DNA of 64,000 nucleotides from Thermodesulfobacteriota bacterium (GCA_965215275.1 OZ244044.1:160001-224000); one strand, 5' to 3'; shown: positions 9,838 through 47,338, counted from the first letter of the stretch. The notes: generated from the letters alone by a model not told the origin. Program-made: numbers and translations.

Positions 9838-11076
9838 ATGTCTACATTAGACGCGGAAAAGATAACGATCGATGAAAACAAGAAAAAGTTAGTGATCCCG
9901 GACAGGCCGATCATACCTTTTATTGAAGGTGACGGCACGGGTCCCGATATATGGCGTGCTTCGCAGTTTGTGTTCGATGCTGCCGTGAAAAAAGCGTACA
10001 AGGGACAAAAAGAGATCGTATGGCATGAAGTATTGGCGGGAGAAAAGGCTTACGAACAGACTGGTGAATGGCTCCCGGATAAAACACTGGAAGATATAAG
10101 GGAGTACGTAGTTGCGATAAAAGGCCCCCTGACGACCCCCGTAGGTGGCGGGATCAGAAGTCTGAACGTTGCTTTGAGACAGCTTCTGGACCTGTACGCC
10201 TGTGTAAGACCGGTCAGGTGGATAAAAGGAACGCCTAACCCGGTTAAAAACCCTGAAAAACTGGACGTTATCATATTCAGAGAGAACACGGAGGACGTGT
10301 ATTCGGGGATCGAGTGGGAAAGCGGTACGGAAGATGCAGAAGCTATAAGACAGTTCTTGGTTGACAATTATGATGTAAATATAAGAGAAAGATCGGGAAT
10401 AGGAATTAAACCTATAAGTCCCTTTGGAACTAAAAGGCTGGTTAAAAAGGCCATCGAATATGCGATAGATTACAGCAGAAAAAGCGTTACTTTCGTACAC
10501 AAGGGCAATATCATGAAATTTACCGAAGGTGCGTTCAGGGAATGGGGCTATGAGATAGCCAAAGAGGAGTTTGGAGATATTACGATCACGGAGGATGAAC
10601 TCTGGGATAATTTCAACGGGAAGATGCCCGAAGGTAAGATATTAATTAAGGACAGGATCGCTGATAATATGTTCCAGCAGGTACTGACAAGACCTAATGA
10701 GTACGACGTCGTTGCCATGCCTAATCTGAACGGCGACTATATGTCCGATGCCTGTGCCGCTCAGGTTGGTGGATTGGGGGTTGCTCCTGGTGGAAATATA
10801 GGGGATTATCTCGCCGTGTTCGAAGCAACCCATGGTACGGCCCCTAAATATGCCGGTCAGGATAAGGTCAATCCCGGTTCGGTGATACTTTCAGGAGTGA
10901 TGATGTTCCAGTATCTTGGATGGAACGAGGCCGCGGACCTTACCGTAAAGGCAATGGAAAAAACGGTACTTAACAAGACGGTCACTTATGATCTGGAACG
11001 CCAGATGGAAGGGGCCACCTTGCTCAAGTGTTCTGAATATGGAGAAGCTATAGTTGAGAATATGGACAAGGTCTGA
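9838..11076 (+). CDS. icd: Isocitrate dehydrogenase (dimeric, E. coli-like)
   Basis: [50 protein letters not shown]. Confidence 0.95.
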
Positions 11077-20773: not shown

Positions 20774-20803
20774 TTGACATTCGTTCATAATACTTGGTAA
20801 AAT
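20774..20803 (+). promoter_or_regulatory. Sigma70-type promoter of S8-like surface protein gene 1
   Basis: TTGACA (20774-20779), 18 nt spacer, TG-extended TAAAAT (20798-20803); ATG 9 nt downstream at 20813. Confidence 0.7.
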
Positions 20804-20849
20804 ATAAATGTTATGAAAAATTCAAACATAAAAACACATAGTTCCATTA

Positions 20850-20930
20850 CCCCCCCCCCCATATAAACCTGACCTTTCAGTCTGGTATAAGTATTTTTTA
20901 AGAACAATGTTTAAGATAATCCCCCCCCCC
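20850..20930 (+). repeat. Two poly-C tracts (C11 at 20850-20860, C10 at 20921-20930) in the 5' coding leader
   Basis: Seen directly; each puts a stop codon in frame, and removing one C from each joins ATG 20813 to the downstream ORF. Confidence 0.85.
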
Positions 20931-23900: not shown

Positions 23901-24366
23901 AGAAGAAGACAGCATGCCGGACTTCAGCGGTACAGCAATACCTGATCGGGTGTACACGGGGAGAGCAATAACGCTGCCGGAGGCAACGGGAGGGAATCCA
24001 CCAGTTACTTACAGTATAACACCTGATCTGCCAGCTGGATTGAGATTTAACGAAGTAACGCGGGAAATAAGTGGGACACCCAGGAGTGCATCAACAAGAA
24101 CTTACACGTATACGGTAACGGACAGCAATGGAGATACGGATGATGCGACTTTCATGCTCAGTGTAGAGGTTACTTCTACTCCAGGACCAACACCACCACG
24201 AGGACCAAGAACGTCAGGTACTGATTCAGGCGGAGGTGGAGGAGGATGTGCCGTCTCAGATCAGATCAGCGTTGTTTATGATATTCTCGGAGCAGTGGCA
24301 TGTCTGATACTTATACCTGTATCAGTAGTTATCAGAAGGAAGAGAAGAGCTCAGATAAAGACGTAG
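20974..24366 (+). CDS. Surface-anchored kexin/furin-like S8 protein (catalytically degenerate) with P-domain, six Ig-like repeats and C-terminal Gly-Cys-TM-basic anchor; true N-terminus lies upstream across the poly-C frameshifts
   Basis: DPLYGCQWHL, GINVAVV, NLSWRDIKLILA, YGFGVVDA, P-domain (ITSPSGT, GEDPSGEWILNISD), repeated LPEATG..YSLTP.LP.GL.FN..TREISGTP, GGGGGGCAVS..LIPVSVVIRRKRR. Confidence 0.85.
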   Translation: MVIAAKGQSSLEETLSECRGMSADTEDPLYGCQWHLKNTGQFSISGNRITAGEDINIEGVWNEYVYGTGINVAVVSDGIDLSHEDLSANVRSELNYSFSEKDNSDSSSFTGTRAAGVIAAAGYNGLGVRGTAPGASIYSYRLSGDLREADAVVRNKEITAVSVNGLGSEDGAFFQEALSSWEEGVELGISKGFYGKGVFYVRGAGDGHENNDQANFSEYSNYYGVTAVCSTDGYGKKSIFSEEGVNLWVCAPGSDIVTTDNNNDYVVTSGTFLSASQVGGVAALLREINGNLSWRDIKLILAGSARQNDFSDISWETGAVKYGSDTERYNYNPKYGFGVVDAEAAAELAGSWKGVGEMRTVTAFSDNEITIPDGEGEADGILTSTLMIPDLEEIFTEFVEVELVFSHDRLQDLNIQITSPSGTVSELVREVVRGSSNEEENCVSYLRRTHRFGSAKHLGEDPSGEWILNISDTASGDAENTVTLHSWSIKVYGHFYQGTGNEINPKHHRLNFGGQTIQDQEYQVEVQIAPLVLPRATGDTGIQYNLTDDPNTDGFATNVPIDGLSFNRGTRTLSGTPTNTGSFDLIYSAVGRTDGTAAQLEFNVTVVNVPTFGGQTIPDHTYARLQTIRNPLTFPKATGGNAPLTYSITPKVQTGLAFSSSTRRITGSPGTVRSRTEHTYTVTDNEGDTAEITFGITVEGNDRRPRFRAGENISDKFYFTGVPITPVTLPRATNGNSPIKYSLNPSLPTGLSFNANTREISGTPTAASSNTEYTYRASDLDGDRRDLKFSITVRDATDVPTFGSETIDDQEHTAGSQITPVTLPEATSGDAPLIYRLTPALPDGLIYNNITGVISGTPTAAMSETMYTYTVTDNDGDTDELTFNIEVAASFSNVTIEDKVYIAGTAVTEMLPEATGHNGTVTYSLTPSLPTGLDFNTATREISGTPSAASSQTAYTYTVTTGAGGPARTLTFRITVEEDSMPDFSGTAIPDRVYTGRAITLPEATGGNPPVTYSITPDLPAGLRFNEVTREISGTPRSASTRTYTYTVTDSNGDTDDATFMLSVEVTSTPGPTPPRGPRTSGTDSGGGGGGCAVSDQISVVYDILGAVACLILIPVSVVIRRKRRAQIKT
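22501..24170 (+). repeat. Six tandem ~90-aa putative Ig-like (He_PIG-like) domains
   Basis: Repeated F.G.TI.D..Y...LP.ATG....YS.TP....GL.F...TR.ISGTP...YTVTD..GDT....F.I.V; boundaries approximate. Confidence 0.8.
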
Positions 24367-26572: not shown

Positions 26573-27364
26573 GTGTATATTTCAGAAGACGATAATTTAA
26601 GTATATACAGATTTAAAGTAGAAAACAGTGGTAAGAACTTTAATTACATAGTTAAATGCAATCAAACGGGAGAATGCGTTGTGATAGACCCGCTTGACCC
26701 GGTTCGATTGCTGAACTTTGTAAGAAAGAACGATATGAGAGTGTCTTATGTAATAAATACCCACGGTCACCCCGATCACGTTGAGGGAAATAATCCCATA
26801 ATTAAGGTTTTTTTGTCATCTAATATCTTAATACACGAACTTGGTATGGATTTTGTTGCACCAAGAGCGGAAGCATTAAAAGAAGGGGACGTTATAAGTT
26901 GTGGTAAACTTAAAATAGATGTTCTGCACACCCCGGGTCACTGCCCCGAACATATTTCTTTAATGATCGGCAGCAATATATTTGTAGGAGACACTATTTT
27001 TGTCTCCGGATGTGGAAACACAAAGTTCAGAGGTAATACTGATGAACTCTATGAAACTTTCTCAAGTAAGCTGATGAAACTGGAAGATGATCTTAATGTG
27101 TTCTGCGGGCATGATTATGCAAAAAATAATTTAGAATTTGCTTTAAGTATTGATCATAATAATCCTCATATAAACAGTAAATTAGAAGAAATTAAAAAAC
27201 AAAATGAGGTTTTATCTACGATCGGAGAAGAGAAAAAATATAATCCTTTCATGAGAGTTGGTGAAAAAAGTCTGGTCAGTGCCTTAAAAGAGAAATACCC
27301 TGATATGAAGACAGATGAGAGGTCCGTGTTCATTAAATTAAGAGAGCTTAGAGATAACTGGTAA
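26573..27364 (+). CDS. gloB: Hydroxyacylglutathione hydrolase-like metallo-beta-lactamase
   Basis: THGHPDH, HTPGH, GDTIF..GCG, CGHDY, STIGEEKKYNPF, LRELRDNW. Confidence 0.8.
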   Translation: MYISEDDNLSIYRFKVENSGKNFNYIVKCNQTGECVVIDPLDPVRLLNFVRKNDMRVSYVINTHGHPDHVEGNNPIIKVFLSSNILIHELGMDFVAPRAEALKEGDVISCGKLKIDVLHTPGHCPEHISLMIGSNIFVGDTIFVSGCGNTKFRGNTDELYETFSSKLMKLEDDLNVFCGHDYAKNNLEFALSIDHNNPHINSKLEEIKKQNEVLSTIGEEKKYNPFMRVGEKSLVSALKEKYPDMKTDERSVFIKLRELRDNW

Positions 27365-27427
27365 AGTGGTTCTTGTTCAGGGTAGGGCAGGGGGGGGGGC
27401 ACGTCTCAAGTGGTTTTAACTGATTTT

Positions 27428-28219
27428 TTAAAACAGACCTTTACTATAACCACCATCTATCTGAATGGTGTTCCCGGTTATGTAGCTGGCTCTTTCTGAA
27501 ACCAGAAAAGCCACCATCGAACTGAATTCTTTTGGGTCGCCGATCCTCCCGACTGGAATATCGGATTCCATACCCTTAATAACCGTTGTGAGATCCTTTT
27601 TTGTTTCTTCAGCTCTTTTTTCAGCGAGTTCCCTGATCCTATCGGTCATTATCCTTCCAGGACACAGGTTATTAACCAGTATATTAAACTTTCCATACTC
27701 ATTGGACAGGGTCTTGGCAAAACCAATTACTCCGGTTCTAGCTGTATTTGAAAGGATAAGACCCTCTATGGGCTGCTTTACGGCAATTGAAGTAATATTG
27801 ATTATCCTTCCCCATTTTTGCTTTTTCATGTATGGAAGAACCTCTTTTGTTAAATTAATAACGCTCAGGAGGTTCAGTTCCAGTGCACTCTGCCAGTCTT
27901 TTGATCTGAAGTCTTCAAAATAACCAAAAGGCGGGCCGCCCGCGTTGTTTATAACTATGTGAACCGTTTTATATTCTTTTATGGTGGACCTAACGACGTT
28001 TTTTATATCTTTGGTACTTTTTGCATCGGCTCTTAAAGATAGGACCCTGGTTTTGTATTTTTCTCTTATTTCGTCTGCTGTTTTTCTGATATCAGCTGAA
28101 TTTCTTGAAAATATAGTTAAGTTACATCCTTCGGCAGCCAATTCTTCGGCACATGCTCTGCCCAGTCCTTTGCTGGATGCTGATATTATTGCAACTTTGT
28201 CCTTTATACCTAAATTCAT
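27428..28219 (-). CDS. SDR family oxidoreductase
   Basis: SASSKGLG, NNAGGP, GNTIQIDGG. Confidence 0.88.
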   Translation of the reverse strand: MNLGIKDKVAIISASSKGLGRACAEELAAEGCNLTIFSRNSADIRKTADEIREKYKTRVLSLRADAKSTKDIKNVVRSTIKEYKTVHIVINNAGGPPFGYFEDFRSKDWQSALELNLLSVINLTKEVLPYMKKQKWGRIINITSIAVKQPIEGLILSNTARTGVIGFAKTLSNEYGKFNILVNNLCPGRIMTDRIRELAEKRAEETKKDLTTVIKGMESDIPVGRIGDPKEFSSMVAFLVSERASYITGNTIQIDGGYSKGLF

Positions 28220-38063: not shown

Positions 38064-39376
38064 GGGAATTATAGTGAATAGTTGACAGGAAGAAAAATTG
38101 AAAACGGGTCAGAAAATGGGTAATATTATAGCATGGTTAGAACGATCACAAGAACTGTAAAGGCAGATAGTGTTTTTCATAAAAGGCTGGATGAATTCTT
38201 ACAACAGCTTACCGACCTGTATAACGGAGCTTTATATCACAGATTAAGATCTTATGACTGGTATGAAAAAACTATCTCTAAATACGAACAGTTTAACGAA
38301 CTAACTGAGGTCCGAGAGCAAGACAAGGAATTTGAAAAGTTTAATGTTGTAGCTCAAAGAAGCGTTCTGGAAAGACTGGATAATGCATATAGTCCTTATT
38401 TGAACTATTTAAAGAATAAAAAAGCAGGAAAGAAGGTGGGCAGACCAAAATACAAAGGTCCAAACAGACCTGTCAGAAGTTTTGAAACAAACAATTATAA
38501 AAACATTGAAAAGATCGGCAGAAGAACGTATTTAACGATAAAGGGACTTGGCAGATTATCTTTCAAAGGTTCTATGCCTGATGGAGTTGTTTTAAAACAA
38601 CCTAAAACAACAATAAGGATAGTTAAAACTGCTATAAGGATAAAGATCCAGTTTCTATGTGAGTTTACCAGCGAAAAGAAAAGACCTATGGACAGGTCCA
38701 TAGGGATCGATCTTGGAATTATAAACAGAATGGCTTTTTCAGATGGAACTAAAATACCAGGAGTTCGGTTGAACAGAAAGGAACTGAAAAGAAAGCAGAG
38801 AATTGTTTCAAGAGCGGTAAAAGGTTCTGACAGCAGAAAGAAGAAAGTTTTATCGTTAGCAAAGGAATGGGAACGAACTACCGATCGTGAAAATAACGCT
38901 ATACACAGAATGACTACCGAAATAGTAAAAAAGAACAATCATATAAAGTTGGAGGATTTAAAGATCCAAAATATGGTAAAAAATCCTTATTTAGCAAGAA
39001 GTGTAACGGAACAGCAATGGGGGAAGATTAAAACCCAACTTGACTACAAAGCCGAGATAGCTGGAGGCAAGTTAGTTTTAGTTAATTCCCATTATACAAC
39101 AATGACCTGTTCTGAATGCGGAAAGGTAAATCCAAAACTGCCTTTGTCTGAAAGAGTATTTAACTGTATATATTGCGGTTATTCAGAAGACAGGGATATA
39201 AATGCAGGTAAAAATATCAATACTCTTAATGAAGGAGACTTCATATCGGGTGGGAATAAGGTAGAAATACTCCCGATGAGTGCTAAGAGTATCAGATCAA
39301 AAGAGAACAGGGATAGAGGAACTCTGCACTCAGAACAGTACGAGTAGTTGTTTGTCAACTATTCACTATAATTCCC
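38064..39376 (+). mobile_element. Non-autonomous TIR element carrying tnpB (IS1595-like ends)
   Basis: Perfect 24-bp TIR GGGAATTATAGTGAATAGTTGACA at 38064-38087 and 39353-39376; flanking 8-mers TTATATAA/TTACATAA (7/8 identical). Confidence 0.85.
38133..39347 (+). CDS. tnpB: RNA-guided endonuclease TnpB family protein
   Basis: RuvC-I GIDLG, RuvC-II LEDL, CSECG..CIYCG zinc finger, RuvC-III DRDINA. Confidence 0.92.
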   Translation: MVRTITRTVKADSVFHKRLDEFLQQLTDLYNGALYHRLRSYDWYEKTISKYEQFNELTEVREQDKEFEKFNVVAQRSVLERLDNAYSPYLNYLKNKKAGKKVGRPKYKGPNRPVRSFETNNYKNIEKIGRRTYLTIKGLGRLSFKGSMPDGVVLKQPKTTIRIVKTAIRIKIQFLCEFTSEKKRPMDRSIGIDLGIINRMAFSDGTKIPGVRLNRKELKRKQRIVSRAVKGSDSRKKKVLSLAKEWERTTDRENNAIHRMTTEIVKKNNHIKLEDLKIQNMVKNPYLARSVTEQQWGKIKTQLDYKAEIAGGKLVLVNSHYTTMTCSECGKVNPKLPLSERVFNCIYCGYSEDRDINAGKNINTLNEGDFISGGNKVEILPMSAKSIRSKENRDRGTLHSEQYE

Positions 39377-42417: not shown

Positions 42418-43706
42418 GGGAACTATATACTTAAGTATCCAGTGGATACTAAAAGTTCTCTTTGACGAGTCATAGACCAGTTCCTGTCCCCAACCCCTCT
42501 GCAGTCTCCCCGTCCAATCACCCCTTTCCCTGAGGCTATAATTTGTTTTATTCCAGTTTCCAACTGGTTAAATGCAGCATTTAAGTCAGCATTAACTTCA
42601 TAACCGCAAGATGTACACTTAAATCTGGATTGCGATCTTCTGTTATCAGGAGATCTGTGTCCGCATTCAGAACAGGTTTGACTGGTATATGCAGCTGGAA
42701 CTTCTTCAGTAGCATTACACTTGTAATCCAGCATCCTTTTCATATCAAACCAGCCAGTAGCACGAATGTTCCTGTTCATCTTGCGAAAGTTCTTCCATTT
42801 CTTTCTGGCTGTCATCCCTTGTGTATTAAGTCTCTCAAGTACAGGAACATCATAAAGATCGGAGATCTTTCTTGTAACCTGATGTCTCCAGTCCTTCTGT
42901 CTGTTTGCCAGCTTCCTATGAAGTTTCTGTAACCTTTCCTTAGTAATTCTCCACCTGTTACTTCTCTCTTCCTGACGTGCAAGTTTCTTTTGGTATCTGC
43001 GTATCTTTGCTTCTGTAAGTTCATCATCAGATAACTTAAAAACCTGTCCGTCAGACAGCGTAACCTGTCTTGAATTCCTGTCCATTGCTACAACTCTTAC
43101 TTCTTTCTTTTCCTTTTTAGTTTCATCTATCTCATAGGTAAGGTACGCATACCACTTACCGCATTCCTTCCTTATCCTGCCAGAAAGGAACTTTCCATCA
43201 GGATATGGATTCTTACCTGCCAACCTGAACCATCCAACCTTTAAAATACGGAGCCACTTATTATCTGACAGTTTAGCTGACTGATAATTTACCGGGAATG
43301 AAGGAGTGGTTTTTAATTTACTCTTGAATTTAGGTTGTCCCGATTTTCCATCCCTGTATCTCTTACAGGCATTTGTAAGGTCCAGTAAATAATGCTGAAG
43401 TATGTAAGCAGATGCTTCTTTCAGAAAGTAGTTCTTTTCTTCTTTCTTCAATTCTCTCAAATCGTTACCTAAACTCTCATGACCATAACCATCATTAAAA
43501 TCATTATCCTTTAAATTTCCCACGAATTGATTCCAGATAAACCTGCAACAGCCAGCAGTAGAGGAAAGTTTATGAAACTTCTCCCTGTTGTTTGATCTCA
43601 ACCTCTGCCTTACCGTTCTTATTGTCTTACCTTCTTTCATATTTGTAATTTTACCTTATTCCCTTGCTTTTTTTAAGTAGTTTGGATAGTTAAGTATATA
43701 GTCCCC
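42418..43706 (-). mobile_element. Non-autonomous TIR element carrying tnpB (IS1595-like ends)
   Basis: 24-bp TIRs GGGAACTATATACTTAAGTATCCA (42418-42441) and, on the minus strand, GGGGACTATATACTTAACTATCCA (43683-43706), 22/24 identical; perfect 8-bp TSD TTGTCAAT at 42410-42417 and 43707-43714. Confidence 0.9.
42423..43640 (-). CDS. tnpB: RNA-guided endonuclease TnpB family protein
   Basis: GCCRFIWN, PKFKSK, RuvC-I AMDRN, RuvC-II LERL, TSQTCSECG..FKCTSCG, RuvC-III NADLNAA. Confidence 0.9.
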   Translation of the reverse strand: MKEGKTIRTVRQRLRSNNREKFHKLSSTAGCCRFIWNQFVGNLKDNDFNDGYGHESLGNDLRELKKEEKNYFLKEASAYILQHYLLDLTNACKRYRDGKSGQPKFKSKLKTTPSFPVNYQSAKLSDNKWLRILKVGWFRLAGKNPYPDGKFLSGRIRKECGKWYAYLTYEIDETKKEKKEVRVVAMDRNSRQVTLSDGQVFKLSDDELTEAKIRRYQKKLARQEERSNRWRITKERLQKLHRKLANRQKDWRHQVTRKISDLYDVPVLERLNTQGMTARKKWKNFRKMNRNIRATGWFDMKRMLDYKCNATEEVPAAYTSQTCSECGHRSPDNRRSQSRFKCTSCGYEVNADLNAAFNQLETGIKQIIASGKGVIGRGDCRGVGDRNWSMTRQRELLVSTGYLSI

Positions 43707-43918: not shown

Positions 43919-46372
43919 TCAGGTCTTTATCCGAGACCTAATCTTCCTTCTTATCACAACAGATACAGGTATAAGCATCAGCGATGCCACTGCTGTGAGC
44001 ATATCAGGAACGGCTTCGCTCTGACCGGAGACCGCACATCCTCCTCCGCCTGTATCACTACCTGATGACGTTGGTCTTTGTGTCGGTGGTCTTGTTGTTG
44101 GTGGGTCTGTCGGTCCTGGCGGCGTAGTTGTTACCCTGATCGTAAATCTCAGCTCATCCGTATCTCCATCTTCGTCCGTTACCTTATATGTATAACTGCC
44201 AGAAGATACAGCAGTCGGTGTTCCGCTGATAACTCTGTCAGTTTCACTGAAAGCAAGTCCAGCAGGTAAACCAGTAGCAGGTAAAAGAGGGGACAGGCTG
44301 TAGGTCAGTTCTCCATTCCCTGCTGTTGCCTCAGGCAGTGTTTCTTTTATTGCAGTTCCCGGCACGTAATTCTTATCTGGTATGGTCCAGTTGTTAAACG
44401 TCGGCGTGTCCCCAGACATATGACCATAGACCTTTATGTTCCATGAGTGTAAGGTCCCCGTACCTGCAATTGAATTGTTAGTTATCTTCAAGGTCCACTC
44501 TCCAGCAGGGTCCGTTCCTAAGTGATTGGCTAAACCAAAACGATGTTCCCTGCCTGTGTACTTAAAGTCGTCTACAGTAAGAGATCCGTCAGATAAATGT
44601 GATAACGCTTCTGATGCATATTCCTCAGTGAGTTTTGACACGGTAGTATCGTCAGGAGAAGTTATTTCTATATCTAAAAAAGGAAAGAAAGGATGGGTAA
44701 AATTGATACCTATCTCTATAAATTCCGTAAATACCTCAGTGTCTGGTATATCTATATCAGGTACTGTCAGTGTGAAAACAACTGAAACGTCTTCTGCGTT
44801 TTCCCCCGTTGTGAAGTCTGGTATAACCGTATTGATATTACCCGAGGAAACCGTCACGGGTTTCATTTGCGGTGGAACGTTGGTCCAGCTTTCTGCAAGT
44901 TCCACTGCAGCTGCAGCGTCTACTGTGCCAAAAGTATCTACTGTGCCAAAACCGAACTTTGGATTGTAAAAATAATACTCTGAATCAGAACCGTATTGAA
45001 GTGCTACTCTCTTCCATTCTTGGGTATCACCGGAACGGGAGCCCTGGCTGGCTGAACCTGCCAAGATCAGTTTCAGGTCTCGCCAGCTAAGATCACTGTT
45101 TACCTCTCTCATCAGTGCTGCAATTCCTGAAACGACCGCTGCTGAATTTGACGTTCCAGGGAACTCAAAAGTATAACCGTCGTTATTGTCGGTAGTTACA
45201 ATACCGGAACCCGGTGCACATACCCATAGATTGTATCCCTCTTCTGAAAAGGAACTCTTAGTAACAGCGAGCGCATCCCTATCGATCTCTGATGAACATA
45301 CGGTAGTTACTGCGTAGTAGTTGGAATACTCATCAAAATTAGCCTGGTCTGATCCTTCATGTCCGTCCCCTGCCGCCCATACGTAAAACACCCCTTTACC
45401 ACCAAATCCTTCTCTTATACCCGTTCTCACCCCTTCTTCCCACTCTGATGAAGCCTCTGTAAGAACGGGAAGGTCCTTCGGTCCCCAGTTGTTGACCGAT
45501 ACAGCAGTTATATCCTTATTACGGACCATGGCGTCCTTTGCATTAGCATCACTGAAGTTACCAGCTAAATTATAACTGTAGATGTTTGCCTCAGGTGCTA
45601 CACCTCTTACTCCAAGGCTGTTATCACCCACTGCTGCTATAATGCCAGCTACACGTGTTCCACGACCACTGAAAGGACTGTACAGATCACCATTCCCAGA
45701 GTAATCATGAGAAAGTGTGGTATCTACATTGTCAGCAAGGTCCTCATGGTCTGTGTCCATACCATGATCTACCACCGCTACGTTAATCCCAGCACCAAAT
45801 ACGGCATCATCCCAGACATCTTCTATGTTTATGTCTATATCTTGTCTGGCGGAGGTTTGGAATACCTTATCGCCACCTAATATTACATCAACCGCTGGAG
45901 ATTCCAGATACCACTGACAGCCGTATAAGGGATCATTTGGAAAATTGGTAGTAATAATTGAACAGGTTTCAAAGAGTTGATTAGAATCAGCTAATTGAAC
46001 TTGAACTCGATAGGATGTAGCACCACTGCTTCCTACAACGATATAGTACGTTCCCCGTCTGAGGTGAGTTTGTATAGATATATTTCCTAGTAGCCTTTCA
46101 TCACTTGGGTCCACTACTTCAGTAGTACTTGCTATCAGATCATCATTACTGTCACATACCTGTAGGCTGTATTCCTGATCATTGGAGAAGGGGAAGGTTA
46201 CCAATATATCTGCAATAAAATCTCCATTTATGTTTATCTGAAAGTAATGCGGATCAGCACCGGCAGCTAAACTTCCATTGTGTGTTGGTCCTTGCACTCT
46301 CAACGTAGCTTCGGTCGTTGCACTGGAGTCACAGTTGTTAATGCTGGTCTTACCATATGCACTAATGGACAC
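43919..46372 (-). CDS. Surface-anchored kexin/furin-like S8 protein (catalytic His replaced) with N-terminal PPC-like domain, P-domain, one Ig-like repeat and Gly-Cys-TM-basic anchor; true N-terminus lies upstream across a poly-C frameshift
   Basis: DPLYGCQWYL, VAVVDHG, GRGTRVAG, GTSNSA, DLSWRDLKLILA, GTDPAGEWTLKI, GGGGCAVS..LIPVSVVIRRKIR. Confidence 0.85.
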   Translation of the reverse strand: MSISAYGKTSINNCDSSATTEATLRVQGPTHNGSLAAGADPHYFQININGDFIADILVTFPFSNDQEYSLQVCDSNDDLIASTTEVVDPSDERLLGNISIQTHLRRGTYYIVVGSSGATSYRVQVQLADSNQLFETCSIITTNFPNDPLYGCQWYLESPAVDVILGGDKVFQTSARQDIDINIEDVWDDAVFGAGINVAVVDHGMDTDHEDLADNVDTTLSHDYSGNGDLYSPFSGRGTRVAGIIAAVGDNSLGVRGVAPEANIYSYNLAGNFSDANAKDAMVRNKDITAVSVNNWGPKDLPVLTEASSEWEEGVRTGIREGFGGKGVFYVWAAGDGHEGSDQANFDEYSNYYAVTTVCSSEIDRDALAVTKSSFSEEGYNLWVCAPGSGIVTTDNNDGYTFEFPGTSNSAAVVSGIAALMREVNSDLSWRDLKLILAGSASQGSRSGDTQEWKRVALQYGSDSEYYFYNPKFGFGTVDTFGTVDAAAAVELAESWTNVPPQMKPVTVSSGNINTVIPDFTTGENAEDVSVVFTLTVPDIDIPDTEVFTEFIEIGINFTHPFFPFLDIEITSPDDTTVSKLTEEYASEALSHLSDGSLTVDDFKYTGREHRFGLANHLGTDPAGEWTLKITNNSIAGTGTLHSWNIKVYGHMSGDTPTFNNWTIPDKNYVPGTAIKETLPEATAGNGELTYSLSPLLPATGLPAGLAFSETDRVISGTPTAVSSGSYTYKVTDEDGDTDELRFTIRVTTTPPGPTDPPTTRPPTQRPTSSGSDTGGGGCAVSGQSEAVPDMLTAVASLMLIPVSVVIRRKIRSRIKT

Positions 46373-46410
46373 AAAGCACAGAAGAAAGAAAAAAGGAATT
46401 AATAACTTAT

Positions 46411-46495
46411 GGGGGGGGGGGGAGAAACTTCAACATTATTATATTATTGTACTTATGTCCAGCTGAAAGGTCAAGTATATATGGAGGGGGGGGGG
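46411..46495 (-). repeat. Two poly-C tracts on the sense strand (G12 at 46411-46422, G10 at 46486-46495 on +)
   Basis: Seen directly; the first tract (C10) is in frame and the second (C12) leads into TAA; C11 would restore the signal peptide. Confidence 0.85.
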
Positions 46496-46532
46496 TAACA
46501 GAGATACGCGTTTTTAAACTCATAATAGTGAT

Positions 46533-46561
46533 ATTCTACTTCTGTTCTGCTGTAATGTCAA
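46533..46561 (-). promoter_or_regulatory. Sigma70-type promoter of S8-like surface protein gene 2
   Basis: TTGACA-N17-TAGAAT on the minus strand; ATG 9 nt downstream at 46523. Confidence 0.75.
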
Positions 46562-46726
46562 GTATAACGTCTTTCTCTTTCCCTTTTTTACAGTGATAAA
46601 GATCTTCAGGATATACGGATCATTCCTAAAATAACAATGAATAATTAAGACAATGCGACAGAGTTTGATAAAATAGATCAAAGTATTATCTGAAACTAAA
46701 ACCTGTACTTTATCTGACTATATATT

Positions 46727-47338
46727 ATGAAACTAATAGAAGAGATAATAATAGCAACAGAAAACAAGGGAAAGGCAGCTGAATTTTCGTATTTGCTAGG
46801 TAGTTACTTCAGCCGAGTTAGATGTTTGCTGGATTTTGATCAAATACCCGAAATAGTGGAAGATGGGAGTTCATTTGAAGAAAATGCCGTGAAAAAAGCT
46901 CAGATCACCTCTGAATTTTTCAATAAAATGGTAATTGCTGACGACTCAGGTCTGGCAGTGACTTCTTTAAATGGCGAACCGGGTATCTATTCTGCAAGAT
47001 ATGCAGGAGAGAACAGCACAGACGATCAGAACGTCAATAAACTCCTGGAGAAGATCAGATCAGTAAAGAACAGGGAAGCAAGATTTATATGCGCAGTAGT
47101 TCTTGCCTGTCCTGATGGTATGACCAGGCTGTTTAAAGGAACATGCAACGGCGTGATAATAGATGAAAAAAGAGGGAATAACGGATTTGGTTATGACCCG
47201 GTCTTTTACCTGCCAGAAATGAAAATGACCATGGCAGAACTCGACCCTGCCGATAAGAATAAAATAAGCCATAGAGCAAAAGCCGTTAAAAAGCTGGTAG
47301 ATTATTTGAATAGCTTTCTCGGTGTTGAAAGAACTTGA
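46727..47338 (+). CDS. rdgB: Non-canonical purine NTP pyrophosphatase (RdgB/HAM1)
   Basis: ATENKGK, ADDSGL, PGIYSARYAG, GFGYDPVF, KNKISHR. Confidence 0.95.
   Translation: MKLIEEIIIATENKGKAAEFSYLLGSYFSRVRCLLDFDQIPEIVEDGSSFEENAVKKAQITSEFFNKMVIADDSGLAVTSLNGEPGIYSARYAGENSTDDQNVNKLLEKIRSVKNREARFICAVVLACPDGMTRLFKGTCNGVIIDEKRGNNGFGYDPVFYLPEMKMTMAELDPADKNKISHRAKAVKKLVDYLNSFLGVERT

Follow-up and report, generated by a model that had tools for sequence, protein, structure and literature searches.

The leader of an S8-family gene on the minus strand of a Thermodesulfobacteriota bacterium genome carries two poly-C tracts in series, each placed just after its own promoter-like site and start codon. The gene lies in the window, the whole stretch of 64,000 nucleotides (nt) that was analysed, and coordinates are window positions unless given as genome positions. 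The locus resembles a simple-sequence repeat (SSR) contingency locus: a long repeat is over-represented, its position in the 5' coding region sets the reading frame, and its length varies between samples. The leader probably operates by slipped-strand phase variation with two locks in series, ahead of a predicted surface pseudo-protease. Phase variation of poly-C runs is textbook knowledge; unusual here are the way the leader is built and the number of genes involved. A family under independent on/off switches would usually keep a sizeable share of its members ON. If two serial locks operate and the commonest tract length is OFF, two small probabilities are multiplied, and sparse expression of a large repertoire could be reached by mutation alone. 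The leader would also be a record of how such switches arise and spread, through duplication of a promoter-start-tract module, possibly one taken from methylase genes.

The first leader unit is composed of a sigma70-type promoter-like site (P1), a start codon (ATG1) and tract 1; the second repeats this order as P2, ATG2 and tract 2, with the 17-nt spacer and the 9-nt distance to the start codon of P1 (Table 1). The −10 box of P1 opens with TAG, a stop codon in the frame of ATG1. The P2 unit is open in the frame of ATG2 only, with off-frame stops 34 nt and 2 nt upstream of ATG2. Translation from ATG1 at 46523 gives MSLKTRISVTPPPPYILDLSAGHKYNNIIMLKFLPPPP-stop. The stop-to-stop reading of the body frame gives SFSPPPHKLLIPFFFLLCFVSISAYGKTS... 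and continues uninterrupted into an open reading frame (ORF) of 817 amino acids (aa; 46372-43919), preceded in this frame by PPPHKLLIPFFFLLCFVSISAYG. An earlier note on this DNA had described a double poly-C leader with the first tract in frame and the second out, and re-reading of the sequence confirmed C10 as in frame and C12 as one base too long. The continuous body frame also bears out the proposal that one C fewer in tract 2 joins a signal-peptide-like segment to the 817-aa ORF.

The length of tract 1 decides in which frame the inter-tract copy of the promoter unit follows ATG1. The frame in which the signal-peptide-like segment follows either ATG depends on tract 2, which is OFF in this assembly. 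Because this segment lies downstream of tract 2, an in-frame tract 2 is needed under any model. Messages from P1 need tract 1 in frame too, because the other two frames stop. The inter-tract copy is open in one frame only, so that out-of-frame tracts cannot compensate each other.

Tract length was compared between contigs of public sequencing runs. Thirteen runs, none recorded as RNA, contain part of the stretch; four runs were compared at this locus and four at a second locus (L020), six different runs in all. A 37.9-kb contig of run X1 has no substitution over about 595 nt and a tract 2 of C13 (depth 7.8), and run X2 is identical to the window, with C10/C12. Among the pieces listed for runs X5 and X6, none spans both tracts at this locus. 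At L020, a 5.2-kb contig of run X4, again without substitutions, changes tract 1 of a paralogue from C12 to C11 (depth 443) and thereby brings it in frame; runs X1 and X2 keep C12, and a contig of run X3 stops 2 nt before the C12 tract, which gives a hint only. No listed piece covers two further L020 tracts (positions 10291 and 10361). Five more tracts at the second locus, of 8-11 C and in several cases out of frame, have unchanged lengths in the contigs listed for X1-X4. Eight tracts are covered by listed pieces, and both C12 tracts varied, while the six tracts of 8-11 were constant. Repeat length thus differs between samples with unchanged flanks, and variation confined to C12 within fixed flanks argues against assembly error and for length-dependent slippage. 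The tract-length heterogeneity on which the earlier note had made its reading depend is present among the contigs, as C12/C13 and C12/C11 differences.

Chance origin of the leader tracts is excluded by the run-length spectrum of the 1.99-Mb single-contig genome (99.87% complete), which has a gap at seven and a mode at nine: there are 36 runs of C6, none of C7, 6 of C8, 57 of C9 and 21 of C10. Runs of G7 also number zero. The genome contains 139 C or G runs of at least 8, and 78 of these are leader tracts of the S8 family. The family was defined by searching all ORFs of the genome with the two S8 domains of the window. It has 57 members: 28 with double tracts, 22 with a single tract and 7 without tracts. 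A leader homologous to that of gene 1, a paralogue in the window, had been taken earlier as a sign of a family-wide regulatory module, and 5' tracts are indeed present in 50 of the 57 paralogues. The promoter was located in 49 of the 50 tract-bearing genes; the single-tract gene at genome position 432800 has no P1 match and was excluded, which leaves 49 genes and 77 tracts for scoring. The −35 box of P1 is TTGACA in 48 of the 49 genes. ATG1 lies 9 nt past the −10 box in 38 genes, 10 nt in nine and 8 nt in two, in agreement with the near-leaderless start noted before.

The 77 tracts span 8 to 13 C. One base is in excess in 31 of them and missing in 29, and the remaining 17 are in frame. In the doubles, tract 2 tends to be long (20/28) and tract 1 is mostly short (14/28), as are the single tracts (12/21). 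The claim that all three broken tracts need the loss of one C is therefore true inside the window, where both tracts of gene 1 (body ORF end at 24366) are one base too long, and false across the family. Mixed frame states and length differences between samples support phase variation, one of the two mechanisms put forward earlier. The family members and their ON/OFF states, which the earlier note had suggested listing, include one double that is fully in frame, at genome position 1028816 (1183 aa). Together with four singles, this gives 5 of 49 genes in frame from ATG1, or seven counting two further singles with an alternative in-frame ATG. Tracts of C9 are in frame in 6 of 39 cases (P=0.01 against one third, overstated by kinship). 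In a hypothetical family with C9 throughout, none of the 28 doubles would have both tracts in frame; tract 1 would be in frame in one double and tract 2 in 11. The bodies are long and open, and a conserved tail ends 52 of the 57 paralogues. Other assemblies contain close homologues, with identities of up to 82%, among them the in-frame single-tract copies P0017 and P0133, and natural in-frame members of the family were found (genome 1028816; P0134). P0060 and P0140, in other assemblies, start internally where the genome copy P0139 is in frame, which is suggestive; they are not counted as evidence.

The DNA between the tracts is a second copy of the promoter-ATG unit, homologous beyond chance. 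The 44 bases before ATG2 match those before ATG1 at 32 positions without gaps, compared with a mean of 13.3 and a maximum of 27 in 200,000 shuffles. Doubles without a clear match of their own are linked to the duplication through likeness to the P2 of this locus, which reaches 30-32 of 44 positions in four of them. The first codon of the −10 box in P1 of all 28 doubles is TAA or TAG, in frame with the ATG. At the same place in P2 it is TAT, TGT, TAC or CAC in all 28, and the stop is lost. The frame of ATG2 is open, and both other frames are closed, in the inter-tract DNA of every double, with no stop among 49 variant inter-tract codons (crude P=0.016). By the homology of P1 and P2, the residues D-L-S correspond to a translation of the −35 region, and K-Y to that of the −10 region. 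The earlier description of the conserved cassette had included a peptide, and the second ATG (46436) and its promoter-like site were missed. A conserved inter-tract peptide was rejected, as minority bases across 24 distinct inter-tract copies number 37, 58 and 41 at codon positions 1, 2 and 3, without third-position excess; the conservation is a by-product of the DNA element. The hexamer CTTTCA (46464-46469, minus strand) is invariant in all 24 distinct copies, and the overlapping −35-like hexamer varies; this invariance could reflect a binding site or recent shared ancestry.

We propose that slippage during replication adds or removes one C in either tract and that these changes are reversible. 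Messages from P1 would yield protein only with both tracts in frame, which would make the leader an AND gate. The flanks would put the commonest length, C9, out of frame, so that most of the family may be silent in a given cell and the population would show a shifting subset. P2 is near consensus at this locus and may open an alternative path to expression, for which tract 2 alone would have to be in frame. Recombination between the two C runs would probably delete the second unit and return the gene to one lock. For phase-variable tracts of Campylobacter jejuni, Bayliss et al. (PMC3401435) report nine as the modal length; bases tend to be gained at G8 and lost at G11. If this length drift holds here, OFF would be the resting state. 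The double-tract half of the 57-gene family would then likely be off by default.

Several observations weigh against the two-lock reading. The ungapped match between P1 and P2 is clear in only 3 of the 28 doubles (27-32/44) and lies at 7-24/44 in the others, partly because 18-nt P1 spacers shift the register. The double-tract copies are kin, so that the counts are not independent and the P values overstate. Only two of the eight covered tracts varied, both of them C12, and the length evidence comes from contigs, so that reversible switching in one population and expression are predictions. The C13 contig, at its low depth, could be an error; the sequencing platforms are off record, and one run may be the source of the window. 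The genes mutS and mutL are present in the genome, as is EF-P. High slippage is therefore not explained by loss of repair genes, and mismatch-repair loss was rejected as its cause. Finally, ATG2 is found in all 28 doubles, and one off-frame stop lies 5, 2 or −1 nt from it in 27 of them, with the other off-frame stop 34-40 nt away in 25. A start codon with an adjoining off-frame stop fits initiation at ATG2 that bypasses tract 1.

These last features would suit an arrangement with tract 2 as the sole on/off switch, in which translation starts at ATG2, either on messages from P2 or through re-initiation, and tract 1 only tunes the level by read-through, by coupling through the stop next to ATG2, by an early stop or by shifting upstream DNA relative to the −35 box of P2. 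The match of P2 to the promoter consensus at this locus (10/12), in the geometry of P1, fits this arrangement, and alternative starts around a repeat are described for licA of Haemophilus influenzae in the available part of PMC2212159. However, P2 is degenerate in most doubles, with CTGACC or CTGAAC as −35 and TATTTT or TATTCT as −10 box, and with TGTTTT, which lacks the conserved A, in five. No clear Shine-Dalgarno site was seen by eye before ATG2. Moreover, the frame from ATG1 to ATG2 is kept open, a property of consequence only for ribosomes that start at ATG1 and continue through this stretch. We regard tract 2 as the sole switch as unlikely. Programmed +1 frameshifting on CCC, or polymerase slippage, would instead give low constitutive output without DNA switching. 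C runs are slippery in other systems, most doubles have a tract 2 that is one base long, and CCA stands directly before TAA at this locus (ATC-TAA in most doubles). But tract 1 and the single tracts mostly need the opposite correction, lengths range from 8 to 13, samples differ at the DNA level, and the leader folds no better than its shuffles (z-scores +1.32, −0.31 and +0.29), with no Rfam match at E≤1 in 46250-46750. A fixed +1 shift, suggested earlier for the poly-Pro codons, was rejected because the mixed states of the 77 tracts follow no single direction; no stimulatory RNA structure was found in the leader folds. Constitutive output of this kind is improbable as the explanation, and some leakage may occur on top of phase variation.

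It is more improbable still that the tracts are relics of a repeatedly copied 5' module, with the out-of-frame genes decaying or acting as gene-conversion donors. The Asp/His/Ser (D/H/S) triad is absent from 49 of the 50 tract-bearing copies, few of the scored genes are in frame from ATG1, and three sets of copies with identical S8 segments speak for exchange. On the other hand, the bodies have remained long and open with their conserved tail end, the boxes of P1 are conserved, and stops are kept out of the inter-tract frame. As the remaining explanation, a long-read assembly could have introduced homopolymer errors into genes that are all truly in frame. The genome was assembled as one contig, and errors are frequent in long C runs. 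Run X2 nevertheless gives C10/C12, the contigs of X1-X4 reproduce the five further tracts, and errors would explain neither the lack of C7 nor the peak at C9. This explanation is already largely refuted, and we give it hardly any credence.

The product of the gene is a predicted pseudo-protease. The triad of this gene reads Asp/Arg/Ser, with the catalytic His replaced by Arg, and the oxyanion Asn is replaced by Asp; an active S8 subtilase was rejected on these grounds. The triad is intact in none of the 28 doubles, in one of the 22 singles and in six of the seven tract-less copies, the latter mostly from one clade. In distant matches, HGT and GTS are retained in 58 of 59. The loss of the triad from tract-bearing copies suggests that the switched genes generally encode pseudo-proteases. 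Switches that sit almost only on triad-less copies point to a variable surface or binding role, not to proteolysis. A surface location is predicted from the hydrophobic N-terminal segment and the tail. No CTERM model matched this gene, and gene 1 reached E=0.1 against Synerg-CTERM, below the cut-off. The genome has one Rce1-like CPBP protease gene.

Table 1. Leader and protein features of the S8 gene, and the leader of its paralogue gene 1. Promoter scores are consensus matches only.
Feature	Position	Strand	Description
P1	46533..46561	−	Candidate sigma70-type promoter: TTGACA at 46561, 17-nt spacer, TAGAAT at 46538; score 11/12
ATG1 and leader	46496..46523	−	ATG at 46523, 9 nt past the −10 box; codons MSLKTRISV; Shine-Dalgarno site not obvious
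Tract 1	46486..46495	−	C10, in frame with ATG2; also C10 in the contigs of runs X1 and X2 that span it
P2	46437..46480	−	Second promoter-unit copy: TTGACC at 46474, 17 nt, TACAAT at 46451, 9 nt, ATG2; promoter-like site 46474-46446; score 10/12
ATG2 and leader	46423..46436	−	ATG at 46436; short leader MLKFL
Tract 2	46411..46422	−	C12, one base too long (OFF); then TAA at 46409-46407
Predicted signal-peptide core	46352..46410	−	HKLLIPFFFLLCFVSISAYG; reachable only with tract 2 in frame; role predicted from hydrophobicity
Protein body	43919..46372	−	817 aa: Peptidase_S8, P-domain, He_PIG Ig domain, C-terminal GGGGC-hydrophobic-basic tail
Gene 1 double leader	20774..20930	+	TTGACA-18-TAAAAT-9-ATG at 20813; C11 20850-20860; ATG2 at 20907; C10 20921-20930

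The double leaders are clustered on the tree of S8 domains without forming one clade, as far as the domain sequences indicate. On this tree, which contains all 57 rows and was midpoint-rooted for drawing only, the label 'double' changes 7 times, compared with a mean of 19.1 for shuffled labels, and the gene described here falls among mostly single-tract genes. Exchange within the S8 domain could contribute to the pattern. In the singles at genome positions 652448, 421709 and 432800, the leader of unit 1 is fused to sequence that otherwise follows tract 2, as excision between the C runs would give.

With its hexamers and ATG masked, P2 was compared with other sites: the score is 12 for its own P1, and 11, 9, 8 and 6 for four promoter-ATG-poly-C sites, all within the top 7 of 242 non-family sites (mean −8.1, standard deviation 5.3), a contrast that is inflated because many of the 242 controls are not real promoters. 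Three of the four sites lead into remnants of N6/N4 methylase-HNH genes, as identified by tblastn; the fourth is similar by eye only. The same leader module thus appears to front DNA-methylase genes. Of 28 methylase homologue loci found, 19 were examined, 6 from this genome and 13 from other genomes, and a C run of 7-10 stands at the 5' end in 5 of the latter 13 (genomes G001, G011 and G029). Two methylase homologues, L055 (genome 674281-678177) and L061 (G001), have long 5' pentamer repeats (AGCAG and ACAGA) in place of poly-C. Capture of the module from methylase genes is plausible as one possible direction of transfer.

Of 30 relatives searched for the double-tract pattern, 28 gave no match, and the six matches in the other two (G007 and G013) look low-complexity. 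One degenerate pattern of the cassette gave no match in the JGI metagenome collection. S8 relatives in other phyla have no C or G run of at least 8 in the six checked of 9 loci, and PPP is absent from the first 60 residues of all 59 distant protein matches. We tentatively speculate that a portable module was captured from phase-variable methylase genes and stacked twice before dead subtilases, and that its inner promoter was recoded for read-through. It would form a two-lock, default-OFF gate that allows near one-of-many display of a 50-member repertoire without a recombinase or regulator, and the number of locks would change by excision between the C runs.

Further observations concern the surroundings of the gene and C runs elsewhere. 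IS605-type TnpB/Cas12f-like genes are located at 42423-43640 (minus strand) and 38133-39347 (plus strand); the former has the orientation of the S8 gene and begins some 280 nt downstream of it. A G10 run at 27390-27399 (C10 on the minus strand) lies between the convergent genes 26573-27364 (plus) and 27428-28219 (minus), and no long frame depends on it. In the genome, 43 of the 57 S8 genes are on the plus strand, in both halves of the GC-skew curve, so that replichore does not account for the bias. A G13 run on the coding strand at genome position 518332, at the start of the S8 region, appears to cut off the 5' part of the paralogue at 513692-518350. The longest run of the genome, C26 at 1401695, follows a promoter-9 nt-ATG module of the same kind. 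The genes at 627310 and 1649137 have a promoter-ATG-poly-C leader and a signal-peptide/N-terminal region as in the S8 family, and no S8 match. Coding-region runs of C9-C11 also occur in another repeated gene family, mostly 77-98 codons past the start, behind a shared 'gcaataggg/a...caa' context and in mixed frames (genome positions 19539, 20737, 31545, 1068992, 1899949, 1901573, 1914729 and 1964984). C9 is likewise abundant in other genomes of this order (G005, G011, G025 and G007, with 108-552 overlapping matches, compared with 274 in this genome, G000), and C9 matches are zero in 7 of the 30 relatives.

In the opa genes of Neisseria, CTCTT repeats lie in the signal-peptide region. The S8 family resembles them as a dispersed family of surface proteins with independent switching by leader repeats and exchange between copies, and differs in its mononucleotide C tract, about five times more genes (11 are phase-variable in opa; PMC11868660) and the serial double tract. 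S8/P-domain/Ig pseudo-proteases with a C-terminal anchor are encoded here, and beta-barrel adhesins there. With the poly-G/poly-C loci of C. jejuni, as described in the available parts of PMC3401435 and PMC4965091, the tracts share C/G homopolymers in reading frames, a modal length of nine, frame-dependent ON/OFF states and the lower stability of long tracts, seen here in the C12 tracts. Unlike in C. jejuni NCTC11168, for which these sources give 29 loci of at least 7, the genome has its 139 runs of at least 8, more than half of them in one gene family and two per gene serially, each behind its own promoter-ATG copy, and mutS and mutL are present. The Cpn1054 family of Chlamydia pneumoniae, as cited in PMC4514472, likewise consists of paralogues with homopolymer tracts proposed to phase-vary, and its proteins are unrelated. 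In licA, according to the part of PMC2212159 mentioned above, several start codons before the repeat similarly decide which repeat numbers are ON. There, one CAAT tract follows starts in different frames, whereas here two tracts each have a start before them, in one frame. Two repeat tracts per gene occur in sabA of Helicobacter pylori and porA of Neisseria, where one tunes the promoter and the other the frame; in the S8 genes, both tracts are coding C runs from a repeated whole promoter-leader unit. A serially duplicated promoter-leader with two coding tracts was not found described in the literature searched, which lacked most subscription journals. We conclude that the system is real and is probably a variation on the SSR contingency locus.

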